64,000 nt of DNA from Escherichia coli (GTDB taxonomy: Bacteria; Pseudomonadota; Gammaproteobacteria; Enterobacterales; Enterobacteriaceae): NCBI RefSeq assembly GCF_045037415.1, contig NZ_CP173438.1, one strand, 5' to 3'. Position numbers: made by a program. Positions 52,101 through 55,100 of the stretch are shown here, piece after piece (positions within the stretch are counted from its first letter, which is position 1; the number at the start of each line of letters is the position of its first letter).

Positions 52101-55100
52101 TCGCCGTCAATCACCACCGGGCCTGTAACGTGGCTCAGCCACTGACGCCAGGCATCGACCTGCTGCCAGGAGGCTTCGCGATCGTGGCTGCCGCACAATA
52201 ACAGCGCAGGCGTGCGCAGCGGCGGACAGACGTCGGGCGAGTCGTAGTGATAGCTCTCGGTGGCGTAAAAATCAGCGCGCAGAAGAGGAAGAAACAGCGA
52301 CATTAATTCCTGGTTTTCCCGCAGTTCAGGAGAACATCCGCCAATGTCTATCAGCTCAGCGATAAAGTCGGCATCATCGCGATGGCTGAGCTGGCGTTCA
52401 GAATGCAGATGCGGGGCATGGCACCCGGAAATAATCAGTCCTTGTGGCGCAAGCCCCCGTTGCTCCAGAAGTCGGCAGGTTTCAAACGCCACCTGCGCCC
52501 CCATGCTGTGCCCGGCGAGTAAAAGCGGCGTGTCAGGCGATACGGATGCTTCCAGCTCGTTCGCCAGCAGTGCCGCCAGTTGTGTAATGTTTCTGAGCGG
52601 TTCCAGATGGCGAAGGCGATCGCGCCCCGGCCAGGTCACCAGAGAAAGCGCGCAATCAGCCAGTTGCTCAGCTTGCCAGTGGCGAAACGCGCTACTGCTG
52701 CCGCCAGCGAAAGGGCACATGACCAGATGCGCAGTATTGCCGTTCCGGGCGGGCCACAGCGGGATGCACATTGCAGATTGCGTCACAGCGCCTCCTTATC
52801 ATCATCGTTGTAGAAACCGGCTAACCGGTCGTGGTGCGGCGGCGTCAGGCGTCTGATCTCCGCATTGCCGGTCTTACGTAAAATCTGCTGCCATAAACGT
52901 GATAACGCGATCTGATGTACGCTTTGGCAGGCCGCTGGTGGATGTTCGCCCGCCAGATGGCTGCGCAACTGGTGTAGCAACCAGCTGACGCCCTCCGGCC
53001 CGACGGTTTCGCAGCAGTCGCGCCAGCTCAGGGGCGCCGCGCTGCGCGTCAGACCCGGCAGATCGCGCAGGATCTCCGGTCTGCGGTAGAGGCTGTGGGC
53101 GTTCTCCTGATGGTCTGCGACAAACAGGCTGGATGACCAGATGACGGGGCCGTAGCTCGCCTCCAGCGAAAGATGACCTTCCGGCCAGCCCAGCAGCAGG
53201 CGGTGCATGATAAGGCTATGCATATCTGGATCGTCAGGATCGAGATAGCGCTGAAGCAGCAGGCAGGCTTCTCCCTCCGGCCAGAAGAGTCTCAGACAGT
53301 GAAAATCGCTAAAGCTGCCAACCACGTCGCACTCCACGGCGGCGGCATCAACGCCCAGAGCCAGCAACAACAAATCCAGAGTGGAGTAGAGCAACTGTCG
53401 GCTGGTGGTGGCGTGGACCACCTGCGGCGTCTTAGCCAGACAGCGACGCAGCTGCTGCGCATCGCGAAGCCATGTGCGTCCCGCGCGCGTATGCGGATAA
53501 AACGTGTTTACCCAATAGCAGCAGCCCTGTTCCTGCGCCAGCGTTTGTAAGGAACTGATGTCATCCGGGTGGAGGGGATGCTCCTGAATGACGTGTACGC
53601 CGCGCGTCAGAAAGTGTCTGGCAAGCTGCGTACCGGTTCCTCCGGCGACGGTCGAACGCACGACAATACAGGCGATATCCGGCATCCTGGTTATCTGTTC
53701 CGGCGAGGTATACAGCGGAATGCCAAACGCATGAGCCAGCTCTCTTGAACGGGCGCTTCCCTGCGCCAGCAGGCCGACCAGTTCCAGCCCCTCCGGGGGC
53801 TGCATAAAGGCATTCAGGTACATTTCGCCAAATTTGGCGCCCACAATCAGTACGCGTTGTTTTGGGGAGGCGGACGGCATCATAACGTGTTCTCCGGTTG
53901 CGTTGAGGTTGCGCAAAGCCAGCGCGTAATGTGTTGCGCACAAGCCTGAACGTGGGGGGCTTCCATCATGATTTGCCAGTGGCTGGCTTCAATCACAGCG
54001 TCGTCGGCGTTGTTTATCCAGCCCTGCCACTCGGTTTCTGCTGGCGTCCAGTGCGCGGGTTCTCCCGGCGGCATACACCATGAGACAGGGGACCGGAACG
54101 CTTTCGCCCGGCGTATGCTCAGTCAGTAAACGCAGCAGATGCGCGATGTTGTCGAGCCACGTTTCTGCCGCTTGCAGCGTCAGGTTTTGCGACACCATAC
54201 CGGCCGTTTTAGCGAGGCTGATAAAGTCGGCAAGCTGGCTGTCGGGCGTCTGCTGGTCGAAATGTTCGGGCAGTGCCAGAGGCGTTTGTCCTTCGGCTAA
54301 CAGGCGCAGCAGGGCCGCCCGGTTTTCGCAACAGAAATCCTGTCGGCACACGGGATCGATTAACACCATCCGAACCTGCTCGCCTTTGGCGTACAGGCGT
54401 TGTGCGGCGCCCGCCGCAAGAAACGCGCCATACGACCAACCCGCCAGCACATAAGGGCCGTGAGGCTGCTGACGACGGATGCACCCGACATACTCATCGA
54501 TCATCTGGTCGAGCGTGGCAAAGCGCTGCGGCGATTTTGCTTGCAGGCCGAAAACGCGCCTGTTCAACGCGCTAGCGAGCGGCAGCCAGGCGCTGATATC
54601 GCCGTCTGAAGCGTGGAAGACAAACAGGGTTTCCTCACCGTCGCCCTGGCAAAGGGGTATCGGGTTGTCCTCTCCTGACGTAGCCGCCTGTAGATGGGCG
54701 CAGAAGTCGCTCAGCGTCGAATGGCTGAACAGATCCTGAAGGTTAGCCCTGGCAATCCCTCTCCGGTTTAGCTGCGCGACCATCCTTGTCGCCATCAGGC
54801 TGTCGCCGCCCAGTTCGAAAAAGTCGTGATGCCTTGCCACGGGGCGAGACAGCAGCGATTGCCAGAGTTCAGCCACCTGTTTTTCCAGTGCCGGATTCCC
54901 CCCGGCAACTGGCGTGGGTTTGGCTGGCTCAGTCGGCGCATCAGACGGGGCATGCAGCGGCGTAAATAACGCTTCTCTTTGCCGGATCTGTAAAATGGGC
55001 AGACCGGTGCCAAAGCGCTGCTGTAAATAGCGGCTCACGGCTTTTTTATCCGGGCGATTTACGCCAGGCGAACGCGCTACCAGCAGATGCTGGCGCAGCG

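Follow-up and report, generated by a model that had tools for sequence, protein, structure and literature searches.

The irp1 locus and its two reading frames

The DNA analysed here (the ‘window’) is a stretch of 64,000 nucleotides from Escherichia coli (contig NZ_CP173438.1, RefSeq assembly GCF_045037415.1) with an ST131-like backbone, and the yersiniabactin genes of its High Pathogenicity Island (HPI) lie on the minus strand. Among these are fyuA (48250-50271), ybtE (50402-51979), ybtT (51983-52786) and ybtU (52783-53883), together with irp1, which sits between irp2 and ybtU-ybtT-ybtE-fyuA, the same gene order as in annotated genomes; its near-identity to the reference, and this position within the HPI, identify the gene as irp1, encoding the yersiniabactin PKS-NRPS HMWP1.

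As written, the irp1 open reading frame spans 53989..63372 on the minus strand and encodes a protein of 3127 amino acids, made up of native residues 1-3104 (identical to WP_000369500.1) and a 23-residue out-of-frame tail, such that its C-terminus reads ...AGRTRALDASRNRVAGLDKQRRRRCD* and the stop arrives 36 codons early. A second minus-strand frame, 53880..54074, reads ...EPAHWTPAETEWQGWINNADDAVIEASHWQIMMEAPHVQACAQHITRWLCATSTQPENTL*, which is the C-terminus of wild-type HMWP1 (WP_000369500.1, 3163 aa); the final 59 native codons (3105-3163) plus the stop are thus found in this displaced frame, at 53880..54059, with the codon for His3131 at 53979-53981. The two-frame description given in the original prediction was accurate in this respect, as was its statement that the thioesterase histidine is lost, with His3131 falling out of frame after codon 3104. 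The thioesterase motifs of HMWP1 comprise Ser2980 (in GWSYG, matching GxSxG), Asp3006 and His3131; the protein as written keeps the first two, and lacks residues 3105-3163 with the third, so that a complete thioesterase domain is present in a single frame only once one base has been removed.

The same removal yields a 9492-nt irp1 encoding 3163 amino acids, whose TGA overlaps the ATG of ybtU (ATGA, 53880-53883) with a GGAG 8 nt upstream of that ATG; both the protein length and the coupling had been foreseen, and comparison with an intact irp1 (9492 nt) confirms them. In the window the stop is shifted to 105 nt upstream of the ybtU ATG, and the ATGA overlap is therefore broken.

Position of the extra base

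The lesion was placed by aligning the window to the intact irp1 of strain SK1144 (9492 nt, WP_000369500.1, 3163 aa), which runs in a single continuous frame to the native C-terminus. Relative to this gene the window carries exactly one extra base, an A on the coding strand after codon 3104 (window 54060/54061), turning GCC GGG AGA CCC GCG into GCC GGG AGA ACC CGC. The remaining differences from wild type amount to two synonymous SNPs (60781 and 55198); the latter is private to the window, to which no RefSeq complete genome is identical.

A CCGGG run near 54064-54068 had originally been proposed as the site of the extra base, and here the alignment corrects both the site and the cause. The inserted A lies 3-4 nt downstream of that run, extends no long homopolymer, and falls between GAGA and CC within GAGACC/GGTCTC; slippage at CCGGG was accordingly rejected. 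In the window the motif reads GGTTCTC on the plus strand (54058..54064; GAGAACC on the coding strand) in place of the wild-type GGTCTC/GAGACC, the surplus base being one of the two Ts at 54060-54061.

Taken at face value, this sequence encodes exactly the truncated HMWP1 expected of a genuine +1 insertion, that is, a pseudogene or truncation allele in which HMWP1 ends at residue 3104 plus the 23-residue tail, yersiniabactin release is impaired and coupling to ybtU is lost. The remainder of the window, which appears cleanly assembled, speaks for such a reading, as does the fact that loss-of-function alleles of irp1/irp2 are common in Klebsiella (PMC6202445). Over 61.5 kb compared with the closest non-carrier relative, no other non-repeat 1-nt indel was found in the window, and the 10 further GAGACC/GGTCTC sites that it contains are all intact, leaving the focal site as the sole affected copy of 11; within the window, then, this is a single event, which counts against an artefact. 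We nevertheless regard a genuine insertion as very unlikely, for reasons that come from other assemblies.

A methylated recognition motif

The wild-type focal sequence, GAGACC, is the complement of GGTCTC, the recognition sequence of Eco31I. The ST131 strain EC958 encodes two methyltransferases, M1.EcoMI and M2.EcoMI, each of which matches its Eco31I counterpart at 100% identity; m6A was detected at 100% of its GAGACC sites (GAG-m6A-CC), with m5C predicted on the opposite strand (GGT-m5C-TC) (Forde et al., PMC4659465), and the same m6A/m5C pair is seen in ONT data for ATCC 25922 (PMC12679398). The change in irp1 thus affects a motif whose methylation is established for the ST131 lineage, and the extra base falls exactly at the two adjacent modified positions.

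Among 5426 complete genomes, M1 and M2 occur together in 633. The cognate methyltransferases were seen in the ST131 reference EC958 and in strain 98194, a carrier of the irp1 insertion; the latter encodes M1 and M2 with protein accessions identical to those of EC958, and in the same stretch as the methyltransferases it has a ‘frameshifted’ ISEc12 istA in which GAGACC has become GAGAACC.

Frequency and motif-specificity of the +1 allele

Alleles were counted with a 70-nt query centred on the insertion, which matched 2263 complete E. coli genomes. Twelve of these carry the +1 form at the focal site (natural query, window 54058, GAGACC) and 2251 irp1-carrying genomes do not. The twelve come from three sequencing projects only: 98194 (Egypt, urine), strains 446 and 463 (Taiwan), and nine isolates designated Esc. 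PGAP labels irp1 ‘frameshifted’ in the +A records, which might be taken to favour a real pseudogene; among the records, a product with exactly this 3127-aa sequence belongs to the nine Esc chromosomes alone.

All three GAGACC/GGTCTC sites in the ybt genes of the window show a +1 allele somewhere in the collection. The ybtE site, an intact GGTCTC at 51545..51550 on the plus strand of the window, carries it in 2 of 2266 genomes (natural query), with strains 446 and 439 reading GGTTCTC, a false frameshift of ybtE. For the second irp1 site, an intact GAGACC at 62578..62583 (plus strand), a synthetic query predicted GAGAACC, and this form was found verbatim in two assemblies (439 and 447; 2/2265). 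Synthetic +A queries at two near-miss sites in irp1 served as controls and found the insertion in none of about 2263 genomes each (CAGACC at window 55000, 0/2264; GAGACG at 55505, 0/2263). In the affected assemblies the same change is thus seen again at further copies of the motif (ybtE, the irp1 site at 62578, tRNA-Ser and ISEc12 istA), and not at near-miss motifs.

These counts also bear on a reading in which the base is real but ribosomes slip by +1 at GGG-AGA-A, so that a share of HMWP1 would be made at full length (R3104E) and keep its thioesterase. In E. coli, +1 shifts can be triggered by the rare codons AGA and AGG, and the local sequence here is GGG followed by the rare arginine codon AGA and then A; with that AGA in the A site, the P-site tRNA-Gly could re-pair from GGG to GGA. 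We consider such a bypass exceedingly improbable. This sequence context is all that speaks for it, whereas 2251 of 2263 genomes are without the +1 allele and the wild-type gene is read in a single frame, so that the site is not a conserved recoding site; the allele is distributed like an artefact, and no stimulatory element has been adduced. Programmed frameshifting was rejected on the ground that the two-frame arrangement is not conserved.

Unrelated backgrounds and disagreeing sisters

Strain 98194 differs from the window by 57 mismatches in 19.6 kb of the island, with different alleles of ybtX, ybtQ, ybtP, ybtA, irp2, ybtT, ybtE, shiA, yeeN, yeeO and cbl, and represents a different HPI and chromosomal lineage; common descent does not, therefore, explain the +A that is shared with it. 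Nor is recombinational transfer of the +A into 98194 needed, since throughout the island the strain has retained a SNP haplotype of its own, and two unlinked loci, tRNA-Ser and ISEc12 istA, carry this change as well.

The Taiwanese sisters 439, 446, 447 and 463 have adjacent accessions and genomes of 5,215,401-5,215,553 bp, and across 17-31 kb they differ from one another only at GGTCTC motifs and by a single T5-to-T4 homopolymer deletion. Strain 446 has two further indels that are absent from its near-identical twin 463, one being the ybtE frameshift (GAGACC to GAGAACC). At the focal irp1 motif both 446 and 463 read GGTTCTC, with the site at 62578 wild type in each, and ybtE carries +T in 446 and is wild type in 463; strain 439 reads GGTTCC at the focal motif, with +T in ybtE and +A at 62578; strain 447 reads GGTTTC, with a wild-type ybtE and +A at 62578. 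These combinations are non-nested, and so cannot come from descent.

The Esc isolates disagree in a similar manner. The irp1 +A is found in Esc 2, 3, 5, 9, 13, 14, 20, 23 and 26, and a +T in the gene for tRNA-Ser (see below) in Esc 1, 5, 7, 11, 12, 19, 21, 22, 25 and 26; the two are shared only by Esc5 and Esc26 and the ancestor is wild type, which amounts to a four-gamete incompatibility, as is also seen among the Taiwanese sisters. Over 23 kb the focal motif is the sole difference between Esc11 and Esc5, with Esc11 reading GAAACC, in frame, and thereby giving rise to an ‘R3104K’ HMWP1 that has received a new protein accession of its own; the same substitution-type mis-call occurs in 447. More generally, some sister assemblies read the focal motif as GAAACC or GGAACC instead of with the insertion.

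Carriage of the allele, then, tracks the sequencing project and not the phylogeny, and clonal sisters disagree; among the carriers we did not find the nested clonal, motif-independent distribution of an inherited pseudogene. A single clonal origin of the +A was rejected, given the separate lineage of 98194 and the disagreement among sisters. It is here that the case for a genuine insertion founders: the pattern of presence and absence among clonal sisters is incompatible with descent, every assembly sharing the change has the methylated motif mis-called in several ways, the change is met again at further GAGACC sites, one of them in a tRNA anticodon loop, and selection for loss of function would be expected to give many different lesions, as opposed to one identical non-homopolymer insertion across unrelated backgrounds.

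tRNA-Ser(CGA) as a core-gene test

In Esc5, the gene for tRNA-Ser(CGA) has GGTCTC changed to GGTTCTC in the anticodon loop, giving a length of 91 nt as against 90, and the same GGTTCTC is seen again where the att site is duplicated, at the distal end of a prophage. ARAGORN reports the reference as tRNA-Ser(cga) and the altered gene as ‘tRNA-???’, with no anticodon assigned. The error was exposed by comparing Esc5 with OZ040539.1 beyond the island, a comparison that was otherwise largely uninformative because of the prophage that lies there in Esc5. The +T is found in only 12 of the 5415 genomes with the gene, namely 98194, 439 and ten Esc isolates, which belong to the same three projects that supply all of the irp1 +A genomes.

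The tRNA result weighs likewise on the idea of a real, motif-targeted mutation, in which GAGACC would often gain a base in vivo in strains carrying the Eco31I system, for instance through repair errors linked to methylation or restriction. The strict motif specificity, and the recurrence in methyltransferase-carrying strains, speak for such a process. Against it, more than 600 other complete genomes encode the same methyltransferases and yet the changes turn up in three sequencing projects only; in sister isolates a stretch of 12 kb would have to have been struck independently several times; a tRNA anticodon loop is among the sites affected; and substitution-type garbling occurs at the very same site. 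Eco31I, moreover, cuts outside its recognition site and not at the inserted position. We give this idea almost no credence.

A probable consensus error at a methylated motif

Synthesising these observations, we are highly confident that the extra A at 54060/54061 is a motif-specific consensus error, arising in base-calling or polishing, and not a mutation; in other words, that the frameshift belongs to the record and not to the organism. The alternative of a sequencing error, which the original prediction had allowed for, is the one favoured by the motif specificity and by the project-bound distribution. Most likely, the real irp1 is an intact gene of 3163 codons, complete in its thioesterase domain and coupled to ybtU at the level of translation, and there is in consequence no yersiniabactin defect to infer; the impaired release that had been predicted is not supported, since the frameshift behaves like an assembly artefact and not like an inherited allele.

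Signal-based long-read base-callers make systematic errors at modified motifs, and we propose the following model. The Eco31I-type restriction-modification system, found in ST131 and some other E. coli, methylates adjacent central positions on both strands of GGTCTC/GAGACC; the doubly methylated motif would then be mis-called, either by gaining a base (GAGAACC) or through substitutions (GAAACC, GGAACC), and the error would persist where the consensus, presumably from a long-read-only platform, is left uncorrected by an orthogonal technology. We take methylation, as opposed to the bare k-mer, to be the probable trigger.

The focal site was garbled in 4/4 Taiwanese assemblies, in all ten Esc isolates examined there (the nine with +A, and Esc11) and in 98194; of the motif copies examined, it seems the one most prone to error. 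The runs of G and C that flank it (GGGAGACCC) may be the cause, and such error-proneness would explain why only 1 of 11 motif copies is affected in an otherwise clean window.

That the base is real, leaving either a thioesterase-truncated HMWP1 or Eco31I-methylated GAGACC sites as in vivo +1 hotspots that repeatedly knock out irp1, ybtE and tRNA-Ser, is in our estimation a slim prospect. The HMWP1 thioesterase domain is reportedly needed for yersiniabactin production, as the title of a 2002 study by Bobrov is cited as saying. Reviews have the finished siderophore released by this domain (PMC10136090). Were the base to prove real after all, which we hold to be very improbable, HMWP1 would be missing His3131 along with the closing, C-terminal stretch of the alpha/beta-hydrolase fold of its thioesterase, and a reduced output of yersiniabactin would be expected.

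Nothing biologically new is implied by these findings, and irp1 in the source strain should be treated as intact; their value is one of curation. The signature, GGTCTC/GAGACC to GGTTCTC/GAGAACC, or to GAAACC/GGAACC, gives rise to spurious ‘frameshifted’ pseudogenes among the complete E. coli genomes in RefSeq that carry Eco31I-type methyltransferases, those affected here being irp1, ybtE and an IS transposase gene, alongside a broken tRNA-Ser and the ‘R3104K’ HMWP1 accession. Tools for virulence-gene typing would be misled by it wherever they score irp1 or ybtE as truncated, and a simple motif-aware check would flag such cases.

Comparison with known systems

The closest parallel lies in the nanopore errors at Dcm (CCWGG) sites described for E. 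coli ST131, where long-read-only assemblies clustered by shared errors, 393 of 401 of which were at Dcm sites (MicroPIPE, PMC8235852); error-prone sites arising from base modification also remain in R10.4.1 assemblies (PMC11610603). As here, the Dcm errors are confined to a methyltransferase motif, common to clonal and unrelated assemblies alike, dependent on the project and independent of phylogeny. The present case differs in that the motif, GGTCTC/GAGACC, is non-palindromic and carries m5C and m6A on opposite strands, and in that the commonest error is a 1-nt insertion, leading to false frameshifts, whereas the Dcm errors are transitions. We found no paper on +1 insertion errors specifically at GGTCTC, published methylation-linked errors being mostly substitutions.

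There is also a precedent for an irp1 gene that appears frameshifted in a public genome, in E. coli Nissle 1917, which is known to make yersiniabactin: the frameshift reported in its first genome (CP007799.1) was absent on re-sequencing (PMC8636617). Nissle, too, carries an Eco31I-type methyltransferase pair, but CP007799.1 is not among the 12 +A genomes and its lesion was thus a different one.

Finally, the inactivated irp1 and irp2 of Klebsiella pneumoniae (Lam et al. 2018, PMC6202445) provide the biological counterpart, with frameshift and nonsense alleles in the same gene that, if real, abolish yersiniabactin synthesis. Among ybt+ Klebsiella, irp1 frameshifts were found in 4%, and inactivation of irp1 and irp2 taken together in 11%, mostly in single isolates. 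Real inactivation of irp1 is thus biologically possible but does not fit the distribution seen here; most of the Klebsiella alleles occur in one isolate each or have become fixed within a lineage, whereas the +A described here is identical across unrelated backgrounds, variable among sisters, and follows the motif.

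Motif changes at GAGACC/GGTCTC beyond the window

An inserted base within the same motif is also found in a structural RNA gene. In isolate Esc5 (NZ_OZ369446.1), the gene for tRNA-Ser(CGA) carries an extra T within the GGTCTC of its anticodon loop (positions 6036-6042 of the Esc5 locus, L016), as does the att-site duplicate at a prophage's far end (L016:47352-47358). With the surplus T the tRNA gene is 91 nt in length, and ARAGORN is unable to assign an anticodon. Just 12 genomes out of 5415 have this inserted T, every one of which comes from the three sequencing projects that show the extra A in irp1.

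The motif also appears with a substitution. At the focal irp1 position, Esc11 (NZ_OZ369470.1; L024:11395-11410) reads GAAACC in place of GAGACC, and the Taiwanese strain 447 has the same substitution. The GAAACC reading gives a full-length HMWP1 in Esc11 with the change R3104K, which has been allocated a separate RefSeq protein accession (WP_410401109.1); we consider this protein variant to be probably artefactual.

Other differences between the window and its relatives

The GAGAACC string is also present at window 18094-18100, where the closest relative, OZ040539.1, reads GAGAATC (a C/T SNP at 18099); this copy does not originate from a GAGACC site and so probably has no connection with the artefact. 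Within irp1 itself, a synonymous SNP at 55198 (codon 2725, coding-strand G to T, CCGGGATG to CCGTGATG) is private to the window, being present in none of the nine genomes compared (SK1144, OZ040539.1, 439, 446, 447, 463, Esc5, Esc11 and 98194). This SNP shows that none of the RefSeq complete genomes examined is the origin of the window.

Relative to OZ040539.1, the window has one unit less of a TTAG tetranucleotide repeat (24630-24660), likely a real VNTR difference. Positions 1-2484 hold the end of an ISCro1 element (IS66-family); here the alignment to OZ040539.1 splits into two blocks that meet at a small indel and SNP (2480-2484), and the first 2.3 kb is missing at this position from most other ST131 genomes.

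An inverse-autotransporter/Ig-like-domain gene (window ~44794-47601) bears a pseudogene annotation, with a frameshift and internal stop, in all relatives examined, both ST131 and 98194, and therefore looks to be genuinely disrupted and shared, in contrast to irp1.

Eco31I-type methyltransferases in 98194 and Nissle 1917

In strain 98194 (NZ_CP173588.1), the istA gene of ISEc12 is annotated as ‘frameshifted’ (L023:31519-33061), and comparison with EC958 shows the surplus base to be, once again, a change of GAGACC to GAGAACC. The same locus encodes two intact Eco31I-type methyltransferases (L023:19881-23376), with no Eco31I-family endonuclease annotated adjoining them; as ISEc23 and a 678-nt hypothetical gene occupy the place of the EC958 endonuclease, these methyltransferases may be orphans.

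The methyltransferase pair is likewise present in both E. coli Nissle 1917 assemblies in the ecoli_genomes collection. An irp1 frameshift was reported for the first Nissle genome and later went unconfirmed (PMC8636617); its site differs from window 54060.
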